A DNA stretch of 43,064 bases from an uncultured Clostridia bacterium (lineage in GTDB: Bacteria; UBA6262; WVXT01): NCBI GenBank assembly GCA_964616885.1, contig CAZTSA010000001.1:1-43064 (forward strand). Direction: 5' to 3'. Made by a program: the position numbers and the translations under genes. The notes beneath the pieces were generated by a model. The model worked only from the letters and a program-made list of their open reading frames with translations. It was not told the DNA's origin and ran no database searches. Positions 3,204 through 33,710 of the stretch are shown piece by piece; the stretch's first letter is position 1, and each line of letters opens with the position of its first letter.

Positions 3204-4391
3204 TTAAATCTCTTCCCAGAGAAAGAGTTGCTTATCTATTTCCGGCTTCGGTTCTTCCTTCCCGGGATAAAATTTTCCATCCAGAGTGACAAATCGTCTT
3301 GCTCTTCTGGCAACCACACCCAACTTTTTCAGTTGTTCCAGTTCCTTTAGTTTGGCCGTCTTCCTTAAATGGATAATTCTCTTAGCTGATATTCTGCCAA
3401 TTCCAGGAACCCGGAGCAGTTCTTCAAAAGAGGCCTTATTTATCTCTACAGGAAACCTTTCGGTATTACCCAATGCCCAGGTTAACTTGGGGTCTTTATC
3501 TAAATATAGGTTGCCCTTACCGTCAAAAATTAATTCATCTGCAGTGAAATCATACTTCCTTAATAGGAAATCGGCTTGGTAGAGGCGAAACTCTCTTAAG
3601 GGAGGGCAGGGACGAAAGTTTTCCAGAGGAGTATCTTCTACCGGAGTGAAAGCACTGTAGTAGACTCTACGAAGATTATAATCTCTGTAGAGTTTCTGAC
3701 TGAGGGAGAGTATTTCTCTATCATCGTCTTCTGCCGCTCCTACTACCAACTGGGTAGTCACCCCTGCTTTCAAAGGGTGATTGTGGTTGAAATGGGCAAT
3801 CTTTCTCAGCCCTCCCAGTAGCTCTCGATGAAAATTCTTGTCCGGGGATAATATGGAGAGGCAGCTCTGGTTCGGTGCTTCAAGGTTTATGGAGAGCCGA
3901 TTTGCCAAATTTCCTGTGGCTTCAATGAGAGTGCTATCTACGCCAGGAAGAATCTTACAGTGGATATATCCCCTGTAATTGTGTCGGTACCTCAAAATCC
4001 TCAGAGTCTCCAACATCTTTTCTTGACTGGCATTAGGAGAAACTTTTACTGCTGAAGAGAGAAAAAGCCCTTTGACCCATCCCTTTTTGTAGTACTCCAG
4101 AAAAAGAGAAGCGAGTTCTTGAGGCGCAAATTCTACTCGAGGACAACTTCTGTCTTTCCTATTTACACAGTAGAAGCAGTTGTTCTCGCAAAGATTAGTT
4201 TGCAGAACTTTGAACAGGTTTACACATTCACCTCTTTCTCCTGCCGCAGGATAGATGAGACTGGAGCGGGCAATGTGTTTGTTGGGGAAAATAGCCAGGG
4301 GGAAGCCAGTTACATCGAACCCTGCTAGCTCCCCAAGGAGATTTGCTTTGTGATATGAATTACGTGTTGTCATGGAAAATCCACAATCCAA
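3204..4391 (-). CDS. Radical SAM protein of the 'putative DNA modification/repair radical SAM' type, with a C-terminal helix-hairpin-helix
   Basis: It has the CENNCFYC (CX3CX2C) motif and a C-terminal HhH (LLRVPGIGRISAKRI). Length and layout match the TIGR03916-like family. The start could instead be the internal Met at 4373. Confidence 0.8.
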   Translation of the reverse strand: MDCGFSMTTRNSYHKANLLGELAGFDVTGFPLAIFPNKHIARSSLIYPAAGERGECVNLFKVLQTNLCENNCFYCVNRKDRSCPRVEFAPQELASLFLEYYKKGWVKGLFLSSAVKVSPNASQEKMLETLRILRYRHNYRGYIHCKILPGVDSTLIEATGNLANRLSINLEAPNQSCLSILSPDKNFHRELLGGLRKIAHFNHNHPLKAGVTTQLVVGAAEDDDREILSLSQKLYRDYNLRRVYYSAFTPVEDTPLENFRPCPPLREFRLYQADFLLRKYDFTADELIFDGKGNLYLDKDPKLTWALGNTERFPVEINKASFEELLRVPGIGRISAKRIIHLRKTAKLKELEQLKKLGVVARRARRFVTLDGKFYPGKEEPKPEIDKQLFLWEEI

Positions 4392-4394
4392 ATT

Positions 4395-5576
4395 TCAGAT
4401 TAAGGGCATAAAGCCCGGCATTACTTTGAGTTCCTTTGACCAGCGCCGATAGTCTTTTAGACGCCAATCTTTTTTTGAACCCCGTCTGTTCATAGCCAGG
4501 TCTGTAATTCCACATTTTGCTTCAGTGCAGTTGAGGCAGTCTCCCTGACAATCTGTAGCCGGGAAGAACTTCTCCTTTTCTCTCTTGTAAACAGGTATGT
4601 CAATCCCTTCACAATTTCTTGAACTGGTAAACTCCCGATTTAGTCCTCTGGGTTCTCCTTCAACTAATTCATATTCCATGCATAAGGCGAAAGTCATATC
4701 CAATCTTTCGCAAATATTCCTTATGGTGTCGAATACTTTCTTGCGATAATCTATTTTGGCATTCATATAACCGTCGATGTTTTCTATATATAATTTCCTG
4801 TAATCAAATTCCGTTCCCGGGCCAAAACAGGTCTTTATCTTATTAAGTACTTCCTTGTGGATCTTAAGCGGGATGTCGAGGACACTGGCAATTATATGCC
4901 TGGCTCCTGAATCTCTTGCCCTCTTAATTAATTGTTGAAAATCACGCTTCTTGTCCGTAATATAAGGGAATACAGGGTCTATTCTACAAACGGCATAAAT
5001 TGCTTTTTTTGCCATTCTGTCCAAGTTTTTAAAAAGAACACTATTGGAAGCCCCTTGAGGTGCCAAAATTTTCCTTAAGTCTTCGTTTATGGTCAGAAAA
5101 GATACCTGCCCAAATGAATGTCTCTGCTGTCTTATCAGGTCAATTGCCTCTTCAGGAATTTCTGCTTTAGTAATGAATTCTATGGGAATATTTTTTTCTA
5201 CAAAGACCTCAATTATTTTTTCGGAGAGATGGTAAACATTGTTCACAGGCTGAAACGGGTCGGTAACTGGAGAGAGGTAACCACAGCAAGCGACATCAAT
5301 GGAATCGAGCTGGTCTGAAACAATTTTGTCGAAATCCTTGGCAACTATAATTACATTTTCTTTTCGGAAAGTCTGGAAATGGCCAGGAAATGCTAATGAG
5401 TAACAGAAGAAGCATCCTATCCCACAACCATTGTAAGGATTGATGAGCATTCTCTCAGAAGAACATTCTCTCTTTCCAGGCCACCATCCGTGAAGTTCCT
5501 TCCTGGTGGGCACTACCACGTGCTTCTGCGGTTTTTGGATAATTTCGTACTGTTGCCCACCGATTAAGATGTTCAT
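4395..5576 (-). CDS. Radical SAM protein, SplB/'DNA repair photolyase' (COG1533)-like
   Basis: It has a CGIGCFFCY cluster motif near the N-terminus and a second CX3CX2C (CQGDCLNC) near the C-terminus. The last 8 codons (MPGFMPLI) are encoded by a copy of the GGCTTTATGCCC repeat. Confidence 0.7.
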   Translation of the reverse strand: MNILIGGQQYEIIQKPQKHVVVPTRKELHGWWPGKRECSSERMLINPYNGCGIGCFFCYSLAFPGHFQTFRKENVIIVAKDFDKIVSDQLDSIDVACCGYLSPVTDPFQPVNNVYHLSEKIIEVFVEKNIPIEFITKAEIPEEAIDLIRQQRHSFGQVSFLTINEDLRKILAPQGASNSVLFKNLDRMAKKAIYAVCRIDPVFPYITDKKRDFQQLIKRARDSGARHIIASVLDIPLKIHKEVLNKIKTCFGPGTEFDYRKLYIENIDGYMNAKIDYRKKVFDTIRNICERLDMTFALCMEYELVEGEPRGLNREFTSSRNCEGIDIPVYKREKEKFFPATDCQGDCLNCTEAKCGITDLAMNRRGSKKDWRLKDYRRWSKELKVMPGFMPLI

Positions 5577-6230: not shown

Positions 6231-7238
6231 CTAGCGGAGCAAACACTCTTGAGGTATTCTCTTAGTAGCTACTATTTGGGACGCCCTTTTCAGGAAGCCA
6301 TCAAATTTCACGCCTTGTCTGTATCCTCCGCACCAACCTAAGGAACTATCAACTCTTTGAAAGAATTCATTTATCCGTCTAACAAATACTTCTCTAATAT
6401 ACTTGCCCAGAATTGAAGACAGTGCAATGGGAAAGATGAATTTGTCTCCCGACTTGATAAAACAAACCTTCAATTTTTTCCCTTTACAGCAAACTGTAAA
6501 AGCGTCCACTCCTTCCTTTGCATGATAGGATAGAATTTCAAATCTTTCCCCCAAATAACTCAAAATCTTGTGTTTTCCCCACCCATCTATTTTCCCTGAT
6601 AATAAGGAAATTTTTTCTTCGCCATAATTTTTCAGGAATAGGTCTATGAAATCACCTATGGTTTGAATCTCAAGTGAGTACTTATCCAGATTCTTCGCTT
6701 GTGCTCTATTGAGAGTGGAGGGACAGAATATTCTACTTTTCCAAAAAATGAATTCTATTCTCTTTTGACTTAACGATTGCGTCAATTTTTTCGACAGGTC
6801 TCTTACAAGCTCGGTTTCTACTTTCCAGGAAGGGAGATTATAAGGAGTGCCATTACCACAGAGGGAGCTTTCCCAATTAACAGGGCAATCGCTCAGGAAA
6901 AATTGCCTATTTACGATGATTTGGGGAAAAAAATCATTGTCGAAATCTTGTGGCAATCTTCCATTCAGAAGAGAATAGAATGCAAGTGCTGTGGACTCTC
7001 CCAATTTGTAAGTCCTCTGGTTATTGCTTTGGAAAAGTTCTTTACTGTCACAGACAATAAGACTCGACTTATCCCTTCTATTCCTTGAGATTACTCCTCT
7101 GAGTTCATTCCAGAAGAAATCGTTGTTGAAGTCGTAGTCCCTCTCTACCCTGAAAGCAGTGGCAGTCACAACTAAAGGTCCCAGCATTCTCTGATTTCGA
7201 AGACCCAATCCATTCTCATCAATTCCTACGATTATCAT
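6231..7238 (-). CDS. Divergent RNase HII-like protein with a large internal insertion
   Basis: GIDENGLG..LGPLVV resembles RNase HII motif I (GIDEAGRG..GP.V). CDSKELF resembles DSKxL. KSGDKFIFPIALSSILGKYIRE resembles HKAD....VAAASILAKV.RD. About 130 extra residues lie between motifs II and III. Confidence 0.55.
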   Translation of the reverse strand: MIIVGIDENGLGLRNQRMLGPLVVTATAFRVERDYDFNNDFFWNELRGVISRNRRDKSSLIVCDSKELFQSNNQRTYKLGESTALAFYSLLNGRLPQDFDNDFFPQIIVNRQFFLSDCPVNWESSLCGNGTPYNLPSWKVETELVRDLSKKLTQSLSQKRIEFIFWKSRIFCPSTLNRAQAKNLDKYSLEIQTIGDFIDLFLKNYGEEKISLLSGKIDGWGKHKILSYLGERFEILSYHAKEGVDAFTVCCKGKKLKVCFIKSGDKFIFPIALSSILGKYIREVFVRRINEFFQRVDSSLGWCGGYRQGVKFDGFLKRASQIVATKRIPQECLLR

Positions 7239-7946: not shown

Positions 7947-8242
7947 GGCTTGAAGTGAACCTGTAAGCCGAATTCTGTATCCCGATTGGAAATCGGGACG
8001 ATGGTTATTTGTCTGAGCGACCAACCCAAAGAGTAGTAGCGAGACGGGCCGCCTCTCCTCTGCTATTCGGTCTTGCTCCGAGTGGGGTTTAGCCTTTTCA
8101 CTACAGCATTACCTGTACCTGGTTTCTGTGCCACTTTCCGTAGGATCGCTCCCCTTCCGTTTGCACGGAACACTCTGCCCTGTGGAGTTCGGACTTTCCT
8201 CTCCGATAGATATCAGAGCAACCATCCGGTTCACATCAAGCC
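7947..8242 (-). ncRNA. rnpB: RNase P RNA, bacterial type A (compact)
   Basis: The minus strand reads GGAGAGGAAAGTCCGAACTCCACAGGGCAG, CACAGAAACCAGG, AAACCCCACTCGGAGCAAGACCGAATAG and ACAGAATTCGGCTTACAGG, matching the universally conserved regions. P1 is formed by GGCTTGATGTGAACC and GGTTCACTTCAAGCC at the two ends. Confidence 0.9.
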
Positions 8243-8417: not shown

Positions 8418-9026
8418 TCAGGCGGAGCTTGGCTCTGCTATCCTAAAAGTAGCCTGTCCCCTTTTTATTGCGAGATTGGCAAGTTGGTCCGCTGCCTTAT
8501 TCTCATTCCTATCTATGAGGCGATAAGTAACCTTTTCAAAGTTAACTTCTACATTTTTTGCCTGTTGAAATAGTCGCCGTAGGCCCTCATTGTTTATCCG
8601 GAATCTTCCATTCATCTGATTAATCAATAATTCGGAATCACTAAATACAATAACGCTTTCAGCTACTAGCTTCTTGCTTTCTCTTAGTCCCTGAATCAAG
8701 GCTTTGTATTCAGCCACATTATTACTGGCTGTCCCGATGTATTTCTTTACTTCTTTAATTTTTTTCTTCTTCCGGTCATAGATAACTACGCCAATTCCTG
8801 AAGGTCCGGGATTGGGCACTGCAGCTCCATCAACATATACCCTGAGATTTCTATATTTTTCGCCTAACGATGGAACTTCTAACATTGAAGCTGCAACCGA
8901 GATAGCTTTCCATATTTTATTGTCACTGAGTCCAGGCAGTTTCTTTTTCGCTGAGAGAAAAGACCTTTCCTCGACAAGAGTCTTCAATATTCTATAGGTT
9001 TCCTTACTTGGTTCGGACTTCTTCAT
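8418..9026 (-). CDS. rnhA: Ribonuclease HI-family protein with a ~70-aa N-terminal extension
   Basis: Candidate DEDD residues lie in VDGAA, NNVAEYKAL, FSDSEL and NKAADQLAN. The ATG at 9026 overlaps the upstream stop (ATGA). The last codons run into the GTAGCCTGTCCCCTTTT motif. Confidence 0.85.
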   Translation of the reverse strand: MKKSEPSKETYRILKTLVEERSFLSAKKKLPGLSDNKIWKAISVAASMLEVPSLGEKYRNLRVYVDGAAVPNPGPSGIGVVIYDRKKKKIKEVKKYIGTASNNVAEYKALIQGLRESKKLVAESVIVFSDSELLINQMNGRFRINNEGLRRLFQQAKNVEVNFEKVTYRLIDRNENKAADQLANLAIKRGQATFRIAEPSSA

Positions 9027-9796
9027 TTTTCTTCCTTGAGGTATAGTATCCTCAAACAATTTCCACAAGCTACTAAATCCTTCCCGCTCAAAACATCATT
9101 TATAACCTGAGGCGGCAAAACTATGCTGCATCCTCCACAAAATCCACCAACTACTGGAACGACCGCGACCCCATCCTTCTTTTCTCTTATTTTCTGATAT
9201 CGCCGGAAAATTTCTGGTTCGACGCTAGCTATTTTCTGTTTCTCTTCGGATTCAACCTCTTGTAGGTTCTGATTAAGGCGCTCTAATCTGTCTTTCAATT
9301 CCTTTTGCTTTCTAGTGACTTCTTCCTTTTCCTTGGCAAGCTCTTCTTCTTTTCTCTTCTCTTCAGCAAGGAGCGTTTCCTCTTGCTCCATTACTGCAAG
9401 AACTGCATCCTCAATATCACTTTTTGACTTCTTATTTTCCTCGATCTCTTTTAGTAATGCGGTATAAGCCTCGTTCGTCTTCACCGTGAATAGCTCGCTC
9501 TGGTGCTTCTTAAGTTCTTCTTCTTTCACCTTAAGGTCCAGCTCCTTATTTTTTCTATCTATCTGTAATTGGGTAATCCCCTTCTTCAACTGGTTCAGAG
9601 ATTCCTGGCTTTGTTCAAATTCCCTTGCCAATCTGTCGATTTCCTTGGGGATCTGTTCTATTTCACTCCGAATCTGGTCCAGAACTAAGTCAACTTCCTG
9701 TAATTCAATTAACCTTTCTAATTGTTCATTCACGTCTATTCCCAGAAAAAAATCTAGACTATTTATACCAAATTTCTGGGACAAAGTCAACTCCAA
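9023..9796 (-). CDS. COG1579-type coiled-coil protein with a C4 zinc ribbon
   Basis: A long heptad-rich E/K/L region is followed by CGGC...18 aa...CGNC. The start is uncertain (TTG at 9796 or the downstream GTG). Confidence 0.8.
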   Translation of the reverse strand: MELTLSQKFGINSLDFFLGIDVNEQLERLIELQEVDLVLDQIRSEIEQIPKEIDRLAREFEQSQESLNQLKKGITQLQIDRKNKELDLKVKEEELKKHQSELFTVKTNEAYTALLKEIEENKKSKSDIEDAVLAVMEQEETLLAEEKRKEEELAKEKEEVTRKQKELKDRLERLNQNLQEVESEEKQKIASVEPEIFRRYQKIREKKDGVAVVPVVGGFCGGCSIVLPPQVINDVLSGKDLVACGNCLRILYLKEEK

Positions 9797-10904: not shown

Positions 10905-11477
10905 TCAAGAAATTTCAAACTTTTTATCCACTTTTTTGGAAATGATATTGCGCCTCTGGACGATGTAAAGTTTTCTAATTTCATTAAATAGTTCAATATA
11001 TTCCTGGGTTCGATAGTCGGGAAAAGTCCAGGACCGGAAATTAAAAGTGCCCTGGCTGAAATATGAAGTTATCTCACCATAGATTCCATCTCTTAAATAG
11101 ATTCTGTTTGGTGAATCTTTAGTGCTGGCTAAGACGAGCTTGGTGCAATCGAGGTAACCCGGGTCGAGATTAATCAGGCGGCTTGGTTTATCCCTGGAAA
11201 GCGAAAACTTTTCTTCCAGGCCGTTCGTAAAAAATTTGATTTCCACTATCTGCTTTGGCTCGATCAGGCGCTCAAAGCTAAGAAATTGTCTCTTGAGACT
11301 TGTACCCATTTCTTCCTGGTAGTAATCGGTCTTGTCAAAGTTGAATACATTGCTTTTCAAATCAACTGGCCCAAATTTCTCAACCAAGATTTGCGTTACC
11401 TCAGCAAAAAGGTCTACATCTTGAGATATCATACCCACTATTAATTTTACTTTAAGAGGCTCTTTTATTTTGCCCAT
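10905..11477 (-). CDS. DUF4416 family protein
   Basis: This is a ~190-aa protein with the DPGY motif context (INLDPGYL). I placed the start at MGKIKEP, because the longer ORF reads into the GC-rich repeat. Confidence 0.6.
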   Translation of the reverse strand: MGKIKEPLKVKLIVGMISQDVDLFAEVTQILVEKFGPVDLKSNVFNFDKTDYYQEEMGTSLKRQFLSFERLIEPKQIVEIKFFTNGLEEKFSLSRDKPSRLINLDPGYLDCTKLVLASTKDSPNRIYLRDGIYGEITSYFSQGTFNFRSWTFPDYRTQEYIELFNEIRKLYIVQRRNIISKKVDKKFEIS

Positions 11478-11479
11478 TG

Positions 11480-11612
11480 TTCCCCTCAACCCTGGCCGCC
11501 TGCCCATTCTGGGCCTTAACGGCCAAGGTGGGTCGCGCCAGACACGGGCAGGCCCTCGTCATGGCACGGGCAGACCCTCGTCACGGCCCGGGCAGGCCCA
11601 CCCTCTCTCCAA
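11480..11612. repeat. GC-rich composite repeat with three tandem ~22-bp units (gcacgggcaggccctcgtcacg) and a terminal ctctcc-aacg-gggagag hairpin
   Basis: Its sequence words are shared directly with 1-78 and 24148-24203. Confidence 0.8.
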
Positions 11613-17115: not shown

Positions 17116-17880
17116 TTATTCTATCTTTTTATCGTATTTTGTTGTTCTCTGCTTAGCCCACTCCCAGGTATAATCGTACAAGTGAAGGCCTTTACTTATC
17201 GCTATGATTTCTCCGTCTTCGATTCCAATCTCTTCTGCCATATACTGCTTTACTAGTTGCAATCCACCCAGGTTTGAGGGGAAACCTCCCCATAAATCCC
17301 AGGACCTGAAATAAGGAATAAAATGGAGTTTCCCATACCTGATTCTAGTGTCTATTAATCTCAGACAGGGAGGATCTTTTAAGCCAACATCAGAAGGCAT
17401 TCCAATCTCCATTATCGCCTGATTCGTGCCATGTCCCTCTGTCCTGTACATTTTTATGACTTCCTCTATCTGGTTAACATTGAGAGGAATTTCTTTCATT
17501 ATCCTTTTTCCTTTAATATTTTCCACTATTCTCACCTTGGGGTCAACCAGTCTCTCACCGTAGGTATAGTCTTCTGTCTCTGTCTTGGCTCCGGTCAAAA
17601 GGTATTGGAGATAACCCTGGATATACTCCATACTCGTTGGGGCTGGAATGCCAGAACCTTCGGGAATAATAGGTATTATCTGATGAGAAGGTTTCTTAAC
17701 CCTGACAGTAACGAAATCGAACTCCAGCCTCTTCTGGCCTTTATAACTACCTCTGGTAACCGTGTAAACTTCCCCCTTCTCCAATATCGCTGAAAGACAC
17801 TGGAACCAGGCATCGTCGAGGTCAAAAGCCTCAATATATACTGGCTTCATACCTTCGTTCTGAGTGGACTGAGTTAACAT
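17116..17880 (-). CDS. thyA: Thymidylate synthase family protein, archaeal-like divergent ThyA
   Basis: It has a PPCL block (catalytic Cys position) and FRSWDLWGGFPSN, matching the ThyA R-S-x-D and G-x-P-x-N motifs. The Asn is retained, which implies a dUMP-type substrate. The start is M1 or the internal MKPVY. Confidence 0.7.
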   Translation of the reverse strand: MLTQSTQNEGMKPVYIEAFDLDDAWFQCLSAILEKGEVYTVTRGSYKGQKRLEFDFVTVRVKKPSHQIIPIIPEGSGIPAPTSMEYIQGYLQYLLTGAKTETEDYTYGERLVDPKVRIVENIKGKRIMKEIPLNVNQIEEVIKMYRTEGHGTNQAIMEIGMPSDVGLKDPPCLRLIDTRIRYGKLHFIPYFRSWDLWGGFPSNLGGLQLVKQYMAEEIGIEDGEIIAISKGLHLYDYTWEWAKQRTTKYDKKIE

Positions 17881-30286: not shown

Positions 30287-33200
30287 TTAGAAGAGGCAGT
30301 AAGGGGTTGGGCAACCCCCGGCATATTCTGAGTCCACACTTACGTATCCAGATGCTTCTTCGCTCACCTCTTCCCGGACGGAACCGAGATAGAGGACCTG
30401 CTGGGGTTTGCTTCCATACCTATACACCGTGACCCCTTTGCATCCGAGCTTATACGCAAGCTTGTAAACTTTTTCTACTTCTTCCACTGTGGACTCGTAC
30501 GGGAGATTGACTGTCTTCGATACAGCGTTGTCTGTATACTTCTGGAAAGCTGCCTGCATTCTAACATGCCATTCTGGGGAGATATCGAAAGCTGTCAAGA
30601 ATATCTTTCTTATGTAGGCCGGAATCTTCTTCATCTGTTGTATAGAACCTTTCTTTGCTATCTCCCCCAGTAATTTCTTATTGTAAAATCCTTTACCTAT
30701 GGCTAATTCTTCAAACAGACTATTGGTCTCCAGAAACTGGGTGCCTTCGAGTATCTTTCGGACATAAGATATAGCAAATAAAGGCTCTATGCCGCTGGAA
30801 CAACCCGCAATAGTACTTATCGTCCCTGTGGGAGCAATTGTGGTTAAAGAGGCGTTTCGCACTCTGATTTTTCTCTTATCCCAAACACTTCCTCTAAAAT
30901 TTGGAAAGACGCCCCTCAATTCCGCTAGCCTCTTCGATTTTTCTCTCGCTTCTCTCGTTACGAATTTCATAATCTTCCCAGCGACGCCGATTCCCTCCCG
31001 GGAATCATAGGGAATACCTAGTTTGATTAACATTTCAGCAAATCCCATGACTCCCAAGCCAATTTTTCTATTACTCTTGGTTATTTTTTCTATTTGAGAG
31101 AGCGGATATTTATTGACATCGATAATGTTGTCCAGAAAATGGACAGCGGTTCTTACCACCTTACTCAGTTTTTGCCAGTTTATCTTATTTTTTTCGACCA
31201 TCTTGGATAGATTTATTGAGCCTAAAACACACGACTCGTATGGCAACAACGGCTGTTCCCCACAGTTCGCAACCACGATACCACTGGCAATATACGACCC
31301 AGACACAGGCTCAGTTAAATTATACACTAGTTCTTTCCCATAACGCTCAATAGACTTTACTTTATCGTAGAACTTGTCAGAATAGAAATTACGTTCTCTC
31401 AATTTATCTATTTTTTGAACAAACTTATCCTGAATAAAACCAATAGAATTTAAGAAATTCAAAATGTTCCGCCTAGAAATTTGCAGTTCGAAAAACATTC
31501 CACTTGTTGAATAATCTCTTTTTTCCCCTTGTATAGTGGTATAGCTAAACTTTCTCTGAGGCGGTCTCTTCCTGTCGTAAATTTTGCTCTTGATTCCAAA
31601 ATTTAGAAGCAAAAGCTGAACTTCCTTTAAGAGCCTTTTTGAATTTGAGCTTAATCTAATATAGACAGTGCCATTTCCCTCGCAAATGTTTATTGTTCCG
31701 TCAGAGCTAAATAAGCCCTGCAAAAATCCAGCAATGGATTCCCTGGGAGCGGTGAACATACTTTCAGGGACTACCTTATCAGTAGCTTTAAACGGTCTAA
31801 CACCAAGGAGCTTGAAGAACTCTACGAAGCCCTTACCATGGTAGGATAACTGATAGGAGTTATTACCTCTATTGACTTCTCGAATATTTTTCCCGTACCA
31901 CTTATTCAAAATAGATTTCAGGTAACCTAAGAGAGGTCGGTCGTTCTTTCCAAAACTAAAGCCAACACGACAATCTTTATCCCCAGTCCTCAACCAACCA
32001 TCGCCTATTAGCCAGCCCAGAACTTGCCCTAATTCCTTGCTCCAAAGAGTAGGCAAGTTCAATGTGGCTCTGTTAGTAAAGTTATTTAAGTAATCGCCCT
32101 CAACAGGTAATTTCTTTTCCTTCCTAAAACTACCTGCCCCAGATTGGATCATTACTTCATGGCTGGAATCTAAATTGGCCAATTTAACCCAACCTTGAGT
32201 AGTTAAGACTTTATGGTTGGCGGTGGCAAGCAGTTCATAACCAGATTTAGTAATAAGCTTGAAAACTTCTTTTTCGCCATTTTCGTATATTTTAACTGAA
32301 TTTCTCAATGCAACACCTTCCGTCCCAAGGACTCTGTTGTCCGTCAAGATGTTAATCCCCCCATTAAGGCTGCCATTCTTGTGCCTTTGGTAAATGCTTT
32401 CAATTTTCTCCAAACCCCTTTCGGTGGCGATTAGACACTCGCCAACAATGCAGGGGTTGGTGCTTTCTATTATTCCAATCTGGGCTGTGGGATTATATTT
32501 ATTTATTCGGTCAATAAACACCAGTCCCGGATCTCCTGTCTTCCAGGCTGTCGCTACTATCAAGTTAAATACATCTCTGGCCCTTAATTTTCTGGTAGGC
32601 TTTCCTGTCCTAGGATTTATTAACTCGTACTCTTTATCATCCTCGACTAATTTCATAAACTTATCGGTTATAGCGACTGAGAGATTGAAATTGGTAAACG
32701 CTCCCTCTTTGGTCTTAGCTGTGACGAACTCCAGGATATCGGGGTGGTCTATTCTCAATATTCCCATATTTGCTCCCCTTCTCCTGCCTCCCTGTTTGAT
32801 TATATCTGTTGCCATATCGAACACCCGCATAAATGAAACAGGGCCGGAAGCAATTCCCTTGGTTGACTTGACCAAGTCTCCTTTTGGTCTCAATCTAGAA
32901 AATGAAAACCCTGTTCCCCCACCCGACTGGTGAATTAAGGCCATATCTTTTACTGCTTCGAAGATCGATTTCATAGAATCTTCCACAGGTAAAACAAAGC
33001 AAGCGGATAATTGACCCATTCTGGTCCCGGCATTAATCAGAGTGGGGCTGTTGGGAATGAACTCCAGATTTGACATAATCCTGTAGAACTCCCTTTCTGA
33101 TTTTTCTGGGTCAAATTTTCTCCCATAAAGGCGGTCGGCGCTGGCCACCTCTCTTGCCACTCTCTGGAACATTTTCTTAGGGGTTTCTATTAGATTGCCT

Positions 33201-33580
33201 AATTCATCTTTCAATAGGTATCTCTTTTCCAGAATTCTTACTGCGTTCACTGGCAATTTTAGATCGTCTTCTACGCCAAAGATTCCTTTGGCTTCGCGGA
33301 CTTCTTTTCGCTTCTGGCGGTATAATATATATGCCTTTGCCACTCTGGCAAGTCCATGTTTAATTAGAACATTCTCTACGATATCCTGTATATCTTCAAC
33401 GCCAGGAATTTTTTGCGCAAATTTCTGCTTGACTATCTTTATCACTTCTCGGGATAATTGTTGGGCCAGGTTTCTGTCCTTTAGCCTTACCGCGAGGATA
33501 CTTTTTTCAATGGCCCTGGTGATTTTATCCTGGTCAAAATCGGCTATTCTGCCATTCCTCTTGCGAATTTTTGTTACCAC
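30287..33580 (-). CDS. nrdJ: Class II (adenosylcobalamin-dependent) ribonucleotide reductase with an N-terminal ATP-cone, interrupted by an intein
   Basis: It has an ATP-cone (KRNGRIADFDQDKI). The extein junction STNP|CGEQPL reconstitutes the class II TNPCGE motif, and there is a C-terminal Cys pair. The proposed start is the GTG at 33580 with the SD GGGGAAG; the in-frame ORF continues upstream to 33676. Confidence 0.93.
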   Translation of the reverse strand: MVTKIRKRNGRIADFDQDKITRAIEKSILAVRLKDRNLAQQLSREVIKIVKQKFAQKIPGVEDIQDIVENVLIKHGLARVAKAYILYRQKRKEVREAKGIFGVEDDLKLPVNAVRILEKRYLLKDELGNLIETPKKMFQRVAREVASADRLYGRKFDPEKSEREFYRIMSNLEFIPNSPTLINAGTRMGQLSACFVLPVEDSMKSIFEAVKDMALIHQSGGGTGFSFSRLRPKGDLVKSTKGIASGPVSFMRVFDMATDIIKQGGRRRGANMGILRIDHPDILEFVTAKTKEGAFTNFNLSVAITDKFMKLVEDDKEYELINPRTGKPTRKLRARDVFNLIVATAWKTGDPGLVFIDRINKYNPTAQIGIIESTNPCIVGECLIATERGLEKIESIYQRHKNGSLNGGINILTDNRVLGTEGVALRNSVKIYENGEKEVFKLITKSGYELLATANHKVLTTQGWVKLANLDSSHEVMIQSGAGSFRKEKKLPVEGDYLNNFTNRATLNLPTLWSKELGQVLGWLIGDGWLRTGDKDCRVGFSFGKNDRPLLGYLKSILNKWYGKNIREVNRGNNSYQLSYHGKGFVEFFKLLGVRPFKATDKVVPESMFTAPRESIAGFLQGLFSSDGTINICEGNGTVYIRLSSNSKRLLKEVQLLLLNFGIKSKIYDRKRPPQRKFSYTTIQGEKRDYSTSGMFFELQISRRNILNFLNSIGFIQDKFVQKIDKLRERNFYSDKFYDKVKSIERYGKELVYNLTEPVSGSYIASGIVVANCGEQPLLPYESCVLGSINLSKMVEKNKINWQKLSKVVRTAVHFLDNIIDVNKYPLSQIEKITKSNRKIGLGVMGFAEMLIKLGIPYDSREGIGVAGKIMKFVTREAREKSKRLAELRGVFPNFRGSVWDKRKIRVRNASLTTIAPTGTISTIAGCSSGIEPLFAISYVRKILEGTQFLETNSLFEELAIGKGFYNKKLLGEIAKKGSIQQMKKIPAYIRKIFLTAFDISPEWHVRMQAAFQKYTDNAVSKTVNLPYESTVEEVEKVYKLAYKLGCKGVTVYRYGSKPQQVLYLGSVREEVSEEASGYVSVDSEYAGGCPTPYCLF
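31265..32452 (-). mobile_element. Intein (396 aa) with a LAGLIDADG homing endonuclease domain
   Basis: It starts with Cys (CIVGECLIA), has block B ATANHKVLT and two LAGLIDADG motifs (LGWLIGDGWL, GFLQGLFSSDGT), and ends in GIVVAN followed by the +1 Cys of CGEQ. Confidence 0.9.
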
Positions 33581-33710
33581 ATTTCTTCCCCTATCGGTGG
33601 AGCAAGGATTTGAGCGACCATAAAGGTTGTCCCCACCCGAATTGCTTCCTAGGAAAAGTTGGTTTGCGAGAAGCACTTAATTTCTTGCGTTGCCAAAATC
33701 TTTACGAGCG

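Follow-up and report, generated by a model that had tools for sequence, protein, structure and literature searches.

Does the gene P0001, which lies in a 43,064-nucleotide stretch of DNA from an uncultured Clostridia bacterium (contig CAZTSA010000001.1 of assembly GCA_964616885.1; the whole stretch is hereafter called the window), encode the housekeeping ribonuclease HII (RNase HII) of its cell, or has an RNase HII-like protein been enlarged and put to another use? An initial annotation, made from the sequence alone, had placed here an open reading frame (ORF) of 335 amino acids (aa) at positions 6231-7238; the ORF list and the translation of the window return exactly these ends and assign the gene, for which no strand had been given, to the minus strand. 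The start codon is sound, the N-terminus MIIVGIDENG agreeing with the N-termini of homologs. We consider it likely that P0001 works as an RNase HII and represents a distinct, enlarged clade of the enzyme, whose members carry a probable four-cysteine (Cys4) metal site and a remodelled active site and replace the canonical gene, rnhB.

6231-7238, minus strand: P0001 gene, enlarged RNase HII-type protein, 335 aa (ORF list, profile, AlphaFold2 model, Foldseek)

Fold, family and distribution

Searches with the single P0001 sequence were uninformative, so that profile methods were needed: phmmer against the PDB gave no match at an expectation value (E) of 10 or below, and the NCBIfam RNase HII equivalog models scored 14.5 bits against a cut-off of 167. 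Two alignments served for comparison, one of 69 clusters from a database search, 285-354 aa long and aligned end to end (A1), and one of the canonical RNase HII genes from 13 related genomes (A2). The best PDB match of the A1 profile was 1eke, the RNase HII of M. jannaschii (E 1.2e-12, in two stretches, chain residues 1-205), followed by the enzymes of A. fulgidus, T. kodakarensis and P. horikoshii, mouse and human H2A, the T. maritima enzyme and RNase HIII. Global hhalign of the enlarged family against A2 gave 98.8% probability and an E of 9e-16 over 193 columns. A local run reached only the C-terminal block (97% probability), where D265 falls opposite the fourth catalytic Asp, S275/K279/R282/E283 lie in register with the AASIxAKxxRD helix and G305-Y306 match GSGY; the run was too short to place the Asp of strand beta4, for which the global run was needed. 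Finally, an AlphaFold2 (AF2) model of P0001 built on A1 reached a mean predicted local distance difference test score of 92.7 and a predicted template modelling score of 0.93, and in a Foldseek search of the PDB its top 13 matches were all RNase HII, H2A or HIII (probability 0.99-1.00, template modelling score on the target 0.41-0.67). Profile and predicted structure together support an RNase H2 fold for P0001, in line with the initial annotation; the outcome it had named as refuting, a lack of any significant match of either kind, did not occur. The three RNase HII blocks that had been recognized in the sequence are likewise all present, in the right order and each aligned to its canonical counterpart: GIDENGLG...LGPLVV pairs with GIDEAGRG...GPVV, CDSKELF with the DSK motif, and KSGDKFIFPIALSSILGKYIRE with (K/N)AD...AASIIAKVxRD, the last in the local alignment.

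The additional length of the protein is internal and falls into the following segments.

6759-6962, minus strand: insert of ~65 aa, residues ~93-160 (model secondary structure and profile alignment)
6483-6548, minus strand: extra beta-hairpin between beta4 and beta5, residues ~231-252 (model strands 234-241 and 244-251)
7191-7202, minus strand: LRNQ, residues 13-16, in the loop directly after GxG (alignments)

An insertion of ~130 aa had been proposed for residues 70-215. The enlargement is borne out; its extent has to be reduced, for model and alignments place canonical elements within that stretch, namely helix alphaA (74-92), a strand (161-171), helices (173-205) and strand beta4 (210-215). 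In the AF2 model the ~65-aa insert is made up of two short helices, the loop that carries C118 and C127, and a long helix (142-158); profile positions 65-145 stand opposite just 7 residues of 1eke, and the insert alone, searched as 88 aa against PDB sequences, found no match. It is deleted in the WOR-3/Hydrothermia clade. The two strands of the hairpin are without counterpart in the canonical alignment. LRNQ is restricted to the window's clade and the relatives closest to it (P0027, P0028 and locus L040), other members and canonical enzymes having a gap there; flanked by R17, it supplies basic residues to the loop that in canonical enzymes holds the arginine of GRG.

P0001 belongs to a sizeable family. 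A hidden Markov model search of 1.84 billion cluster representatives (50% identity) recovered 1,365 proteins with an E of 1e-30 or less, a number that rises to 2,479 when the limit is relaxed to 1e-10, and relatives are encoded at 174 loci in species-representative genomes. By record title, the carriers include Omnitrophota, Ratteibacteria, Aerophobetes, WOR-3, Hydrothermia and Elusimicrobiota, together with Planctomycetota (a metagenome-assembled genome, or MAG, of Kuenenia stuttgartiensis), many Polyangia/Myxococcota (including a MAG of Nannocystis exedens) and Dependentiae (Vermiphilus). One branch of a maximum-likelihood tree, with 98% support in the Shimodaira-Hasegawa-like approximate likelihood ratio test, separates 57 representatives of the family from 18 canonical enzymes; phylogenetically, the enlarged RNase HII is one monophyletic clade. 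Searches of the literature for RNase HII with an iron-sulfur cluster or in Myxococcota returned no description of it.

Among characterized enzymes, the best profile and fold matches of the enlarged family are the archaeal-type RNases HII (1eke; A. fulgidus 1i39/3p83; T. kodakarensis 1io2). Like these, its members start directly at beta1 (M-x-x-x-GIDE), consist of a single polypeptide without extra subunits, and have the D-E pair on beta1, the DSK motif, the xAD/xGD carboxylate after beta5, the (A/S)S(I/L)xxKxxR(D/E) helix and the GSGY tyrosine. They differ in being ~110 residues longer, with the ~65-aa insert after alphaA and the extra hairpin, in a putative four-Cys site that involves the C-terminal tail, in a conserved E81, and in three replacements: GRG by G-[L/Y/F]-G, DEA by DEN, and the third Asp by Gly followed by a conserved Lys. 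Bacterial RNase HII (RnhB; T. maritima 3o3f and the E. coli enzyme; PF01351) has the same fold, motifs and presumed role, likewise at one gene per genome; the enlarged form differs from it in the same respects as from the archaeal type, P0001 lying below both the PF01351 gathering and the NCBIfam cut-offs, and the two are mutually exclusive in the genomes examined. RNase HIII (B. stearothermophilus 2d0a/3asm, Thermovibrio 4py5, Aquifex 3vn5) is of similar length (~300 aa), has a type-2 catalytic domain and is among the fold matches. However, it owes its length to an N-terminal substrate-binding domain, and it is without the junction tyrosine, the mark that separates RNase HII from HIII (PMC9719913), whereas the family of P0001 keeps this residue in 271 of 274 sequences. 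Identity with RNase HIII was rejected on these grounds: beta1 begins at residue 2 of P0001, Pfam and NCBIfam detect no N-terminal domain, and the tyrosine is present.

The distributions of the long form and of canonical rnhB are complementary. The initial annotation had raised the possibility of a canonical rnhB elsewhere in the genome; the window's genome (1.47 Mb, 94.9% complete) has none, the P0001 gene being its sole PF01351 match. Within the window's taxonomic family the long form is present in 7 of 9 genomes (the window's included) and the canonical gene in none; the two genomes with neither form are 91% and 86% complete. An unrelated genome, G035, also has the long form and lacks the canonical gene; its relatives yielded no second member of the G035 lineage. 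For carriers of other phyla, PF01351 matches are weak, partial and inside the long gene in 20 of 20 genomes, these being MAGs of unknown completeness that were picked for carrying the gene. All carriers together, 28 of 28 genomes are without any other PF01351 gene, a count in which related genomes are non-independent samples. Full-length canonical genes (E 1e-23 to 1e-47) occur in 42 of the 45 non-carriers, and PF01351 detection succeeded in all 14 control genomes. The phylum-level search spanned 12 genomes, the window's phylum being very small. For comparison, published surveys report a type-2 RNase H from nearly every prokaryote; one of them counted 333 RNase HII and 76 RNase HIII genes in 353 genomes (Kochiwa et al. 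2007, PMC1950709). Since the long form and canonical rnhB are distributed in this complementary manner, homologous displacement is the most likely explanation, with P0001 acting as the cell's RNase HII; the enlarged clade would have displaced canonical rnhB in several bacterial phyla.

The sister family in the same order (genomes G009 and G010; loci L014 and L015) carries RNase HII of archaeal type, 210-215 aa long, instead of the usual bacterial type, recognizable by GIDEAGRGCVIGPMV..., NADKKYPVVGAASIIAKVHRD and GSGYPSD. An archaeal-type ancestor for the enlarged clade fits this occurrence.

A probable four-cysteine site

The Cys-rich patch that the initial annotation had noticed is real: C118 and C127 are conserved, and they form part of a set of four that also includes C172 and C332.

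6885-6887, minus strand: C118, in the insert loop, conserved Cys of the tetrad
6858-6860, minus strand: C127, in the insert loop, conserved Cys of the tetrad
6723-6725, minus strand: C172, where core strand 161-171 ends, the tetrad's third Cys (C in 246/274)
6243-6245, minus strand: C332, three residues before the invariant C-terminal R335, fourth Cys of the tetrad (C in 246/274)

Conservation was counted in 274 aligned family sequences and in a smaller version of 142. Each of the four cysteines is kept in 84-90% of the 274, and all four occur together in 220 of them and in 122 of the 142. The pattern is C-x6-8-C-x~40-C-x~154-C-x3-5-end, the last Cys mostly lying 3-5 residues short of the C-terminus; the first and the third are often followed by Pro. 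C172 is replaced by F, M or H exactly in those members that are without the other tetrad cysteines. The WOR-3/Hydrothermia clade has lost the tetrad as a unit, with the insert deleted, C172 changed to F and C332 to D or L; the long-branched basal member P0065 also lacks the four. Because the cysteines are conserved jointly and lost jointly, they most likely form one putative metal site, which would link the insert and the C-terminal tail to the core, at the point where the first core strand beyond the insert ends.

Which metal such a site might hold is a matter of slight preference. We slightly favour a [4Fe-4S] cluster over structural zinc, because the predicted ligands come from four distant segments and are without CxxC knuckles. 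In AddB, Dna2, Cas4, the primase subunit PriL and XPD, a Cys4 iron-sulfur cluster ties distant segments together. By analogy, the enlarged RNase HII would resemble these enzymes in drawing four conserved cysteines from distant parts, including a terminal segment, and in losing them as a unit; fold and Cys spacing are unrelated, and the analogy is confined to layout. No such cofactor is mentioned in papers on RNase H, among them a review of RNase H diversity from 2022.

A serious alternative, toward which we lean somewhat less than evenly, keeps the same RNase HII function and lets the four cysteines bind structural zinc or form disulfides in place of a cluster. Cys4 is the commonest kind of structural zinc site, one clade manages without the tetrad, which suggests a stabilizing and non-catalytic role, and the tetrad is kept in the aerobic Polyangia. 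The absence of CxxC or CxxH knuckles speaks against zinc, as do the origin of the ligands in four distant segments, the C-x6-8-C spacing, the frequent Cys-Pro, and the similar ligand layout of the iron-sulfur nucleic-acid enzymes PriL, XPD and AddB/Dna2. The disulfide variant is unlikely in the cytoplasm.

The active site

Apart from the four cysteines, the proposal that P0001 is a working RNase HII depends on residues that can be placed individually in the window.

7203-7226, minus strand: GIDENGLG, residues 5-12, with D7-E8 on strand beta1 and then G-L-G for canonical G-R-G (alignments)
7041-7049, minus strand: DSK motif, residues 64-66 (aligned with canonical DSK)
6996-6998, minus strand: E81, family-specific Glu in helix alphaA (alignment)
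6591-6599, minus strand: S-G-K, residues 214-216, where strand beta4 ends and canonical enzymes have the third catalytic Asp (alignments)
6390-6455, minus strand: KSGDKFIFPIALSSILGKYIRE, residues 262-283, with the fourth carboxylate D265 (6444-6446) and the SS(I/L)xGKxxRE helix (local hhalign)
6321-6326, minus strand: G305-Y306, counterpart of the (G)SGY junction-sensing tyrosine (aligned with GSGY/KGY)

Most of these positions are almost without variation. D7 and E8, which align with the canonical DE, are present in 270 and 271 of the 274 sequences, the others being gaps or truncations, and are invariant in 142 of 142. S65 and K66 are invariant throughout the 274, and D64 is D in 261, E in 11 and N in 2. 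The segment KSGDKFIFPIALSSILGKYIRE pairs with xxADKKYPVVGAASIIAKVHRD (local hhalign, 97%), which equates D265 with canonical D134; this position is D or E in 272 of 274, and K279 and R282 are invariant (274/274). G305 (274/274) and Y306 (271/274) correspond to the canonical pair G168-Y169. Judged by this conservation, the catalytic and substrate-binding residues appear to be under purifying selection across the 274 sequences.

Two positions have been remodelled. The middle residue of GxG is L in 193, Y in 54, F in 16, V in 4 and M in 4 of the 274 sequences, which accounts for all but 3, and 3 sequences have gaps at the neighbouring E8 (L 104, Y 28 and F 10 of the 142); no R or K was seen among the 274, neither occurs in the 142, and the glycines are invariant. 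P0001, with G-L-G, accordingly lacks the basic residue of the GR(K)G motif, which is highly conserved and important in RNases HII and HIII (PMC9719913). The third catalytic Asp is placed at residue 215 by HMMER and at 214 by hhalign and MAFFT, a disagreement of one residue; position 215 is G in 250, D in 22 and H in 2 of 274, and position 214 is C, A, S or L and never acidic. The four acidic residues expected by the initial annotation are thus present in part: the canonical carboxylates D7, E8 and D265 are kept, and the third Asp is replaced by Gly or Ser. Because members with Asp-215 are scattered and partly basal in the tree, the alignment suggests that an ancestral Asp-215 was lost repeatedly. 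No convincing column emerged when G215 and D215 members were compared for a compensating acidic residue, positions 263 and 190 being enriched and not conserved. E81 is Glu in 265 of 274 sequences, in G215 and D215 members alike, and has no conserved counterpart in canonical RNase HII in a mixed alignment; other family-specific conserved residues are N9, N177 and K/R216.

P0001 would accordingly be expected to nick DNA 5' of embedded ribonucleotides and at RNA-DNA junctions, since the carboxylates D7, E8 and D265, the DSK lysine and Y306 are retained, and this nicking would serve ribonucleotide excision repair and primer removal. Catalysis would probably run on a three-carboxylate (D-E-D) metal site, because 91% of members have Gly in place of the beta4 Asp, and Leu, Tyr or Phe stands where the arginine of GRG would be; E81 and/or K216 may possibly assist it. 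The set of carboxylates varies among type-2 enzymes, that of RNase HIII being DEDE (PMC9719913).

Several points weigh against a functional RNase HII. P0001 lacks three canonical RNase HII features and has the others: its Pfam score is below threshold, the Gly found in 91% of members stands where the third catalytic Asp should be at the end of beta4, and the basic residue of GR(K)G is absent. The third Asp is essential in studied RNases HII, as mutants of Tk-RNase HII D105 and human RNase H2A D141 attest. The profile comparison envisaged in the initial annotation divides on this matter, PF01351 on P0001 alone aligning no more than residues 256-294 and reaching 24.2 bits where the gathering cut-off is 25.8, and the match becoming significant at profile level; PF01351 matches are already precomputed for many more distant members of the enlarged family. 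To these points are added the selective choice and uncertain completeness of the 20 additional carrier genomes, and the literature searched, which held no biochemical characterization of any clade member.

The main rival explanation builds on the altered residues and supposes that P0001 is a weakened or inactive relative of RNase HII, which binds nucleic acid, for instance as a sensor or scaffold, without cleaving it, in lineages that have lost type-2 activity. The third catalytic Asp is gone in 91% of members and the GRG arginine in all, and an RNase HI gene lies nearby (8418-9068); moreover, the RNase H genes of E. coli and B. subtilis are individually dispensable (PMC9719913). We nevertheless judge this explanation improbable, for a protein that does not cleave could hardly be expected to keep D7, E8, D/E265, the DSK lysine and Y306 at 98.5-100% in 274 sequences drawn from many phyla, and the scattering of Asp-215 members through the tree implies that the position still tolerates a catalytic residue. 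Three-carboxylate sites are, in addition, functional in other RNase H-like enzymes, DDE transposases and integrases among them, where they support two-metal catalysis.

Gene neighbourhood and significance

The genes around P0001 are tightly packed on one strand, with gaps of 11 nucleotides (nt) and 15 nt. Their order is a CdsZ-like zinc-ribbon gene, RNase HI, rnpB, a nitroreductase, the P0001 gene, a PF13482 exonuclease, a PA0069-like radical S-adenosylmethionine (SAM) enzyme, a TIGR03916 radical SAM enzyme and MazG. The run of nitroreductase, RNase HII-like gene, PF13482 exonuclease and radical SAM genes is kept in the window's own lineage only, at 5 of 80 loci (L034-L038), and incompletely there, the PA0069-like gene giving no match and the TIGR03916 gene being a 31-aa remnant at L035, and the TIGR03916 gene giving no match at L038. 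In the 75 more distant loci none of these neighbours adjoins the family member, and the distant members P0032, P0049 and P0057 lie in unrelated housekeeping contexts. PADLOC detected no defence-system match for the P0001 gene or its immediate neighbours. The idea that the gene shares a conserved operon with the exonuclease was rejected, the neighbourhood being confined to L034-L038.

The suggestion of the initial annotation, a repurposed RNase H2-fold nuclease that works with the neighbouring exonuclease, here as part of a DNA/RNA-processing module with the PF13482 enzyme and two radical SAM enzymes and not as a housekeeping RNase HII, can draw on the tight packing, the nucleic-acid-enzyme neighbours (PF13482, PA0069-like, TIGR03916, MazG, RNase HI), the gene order kept in five related genomes and the altered active site (G215, G-L-G), and is nonetheless very unlikely, given that the neighbours are missing beside the gene at the distant loci and that a distribution complementary to canonical rnhB is the pattern of a replacement and not of an accessory module.

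Several features of the neighbourhood and the wider window deserve mention in their own right. The gene rnpB (7948-8237, minus strand; 166.7 bits, E 3.7e-52), which encodes an RNase P RNA of bacterial class A, is flanked by the nitroreductase and RNase HI genes; its match covers just 290 nt against a model of 367 positions, and the RNA looks reduced. The RNase HI ORF (8418-9068, minus strand; 216 aa) has ~70 residues ahead of its RNase H domain and overlaps the upstream CdsZ-like zinc-ribbon gene (9023-9796, minus strand) by 46 nt; its true start may lie downstream. The radical SAM genes are adjacent (3204-4391 and 4395-5576, both minus strand), one being TIGR03916 and the other PA0069/Rv2578c-like. 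The TIGR03916 protein ('putative DNA modification/repair radical SAM protein') matches above cut-off at 352 bits and ends in a helix-hairpin-helix tail. Members of its family usually go with a uracil-DNA glycosylase-like partner, but none was seen in the window. Farther away, a ribonucleotide reductase large subunit with an ATP-cone (30287-33676, minus strand; 1129 aa) is interrupted by an intein with a LAGLIDADG homing-endonuclease domain (Pfam Intein_splicing, LAGLIDADG_3). For a 254-aa protein (17116-17880, minus strand) the one resemblance is to part of thymidylate synthase (E 3e-9, profile positions 107-224), and a DUF4416 family member lies at 10905-11507 on the minus strand (E 2e-57).

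In the usual view RNase HII is near-universal, its DEDD site is invariant and it has a GR(K)G motif; the enlarged clade breaks two of these rules. It also offers an explanation for the apparent absence of rnhB from several mostly uncultured phyla, in which the enlarged form takes its place. The PF01351 gathering cut-off and the NCBIfam equivalog models under-call the gene, which affects annotation and conclusions about gene content; the practical consequence is modest, in that a dedicated family model is needed. As the enlarged clade is apparently the sole type-2 RNase H of its carriers, it amounts to a natural experiment on the residues that ribonucleotide excision needs. If the Cys4 site holds an iron-sulfur cluster, RNase HII would have to be counted among the DNA-maintenance enzymes with a cofactor of this kind. 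In its fullest form, which we advance only tentatively and think doubtful as a whole, the proposal would make this clade the first type-2 RNase H with a [4Fe-4S] cluster and with a D-E-D site that is without both the beta4 Asp and the GRG Arg, on which entire phyla or classes, among them Omnitrophota, WOR-3, Polyangia and anammox Planctomycetota, would depend as their only RNase HII. Should both the iron-sulfur cluster and activity without the beta4 Asp prove true, the clade would gain considerably in interest.

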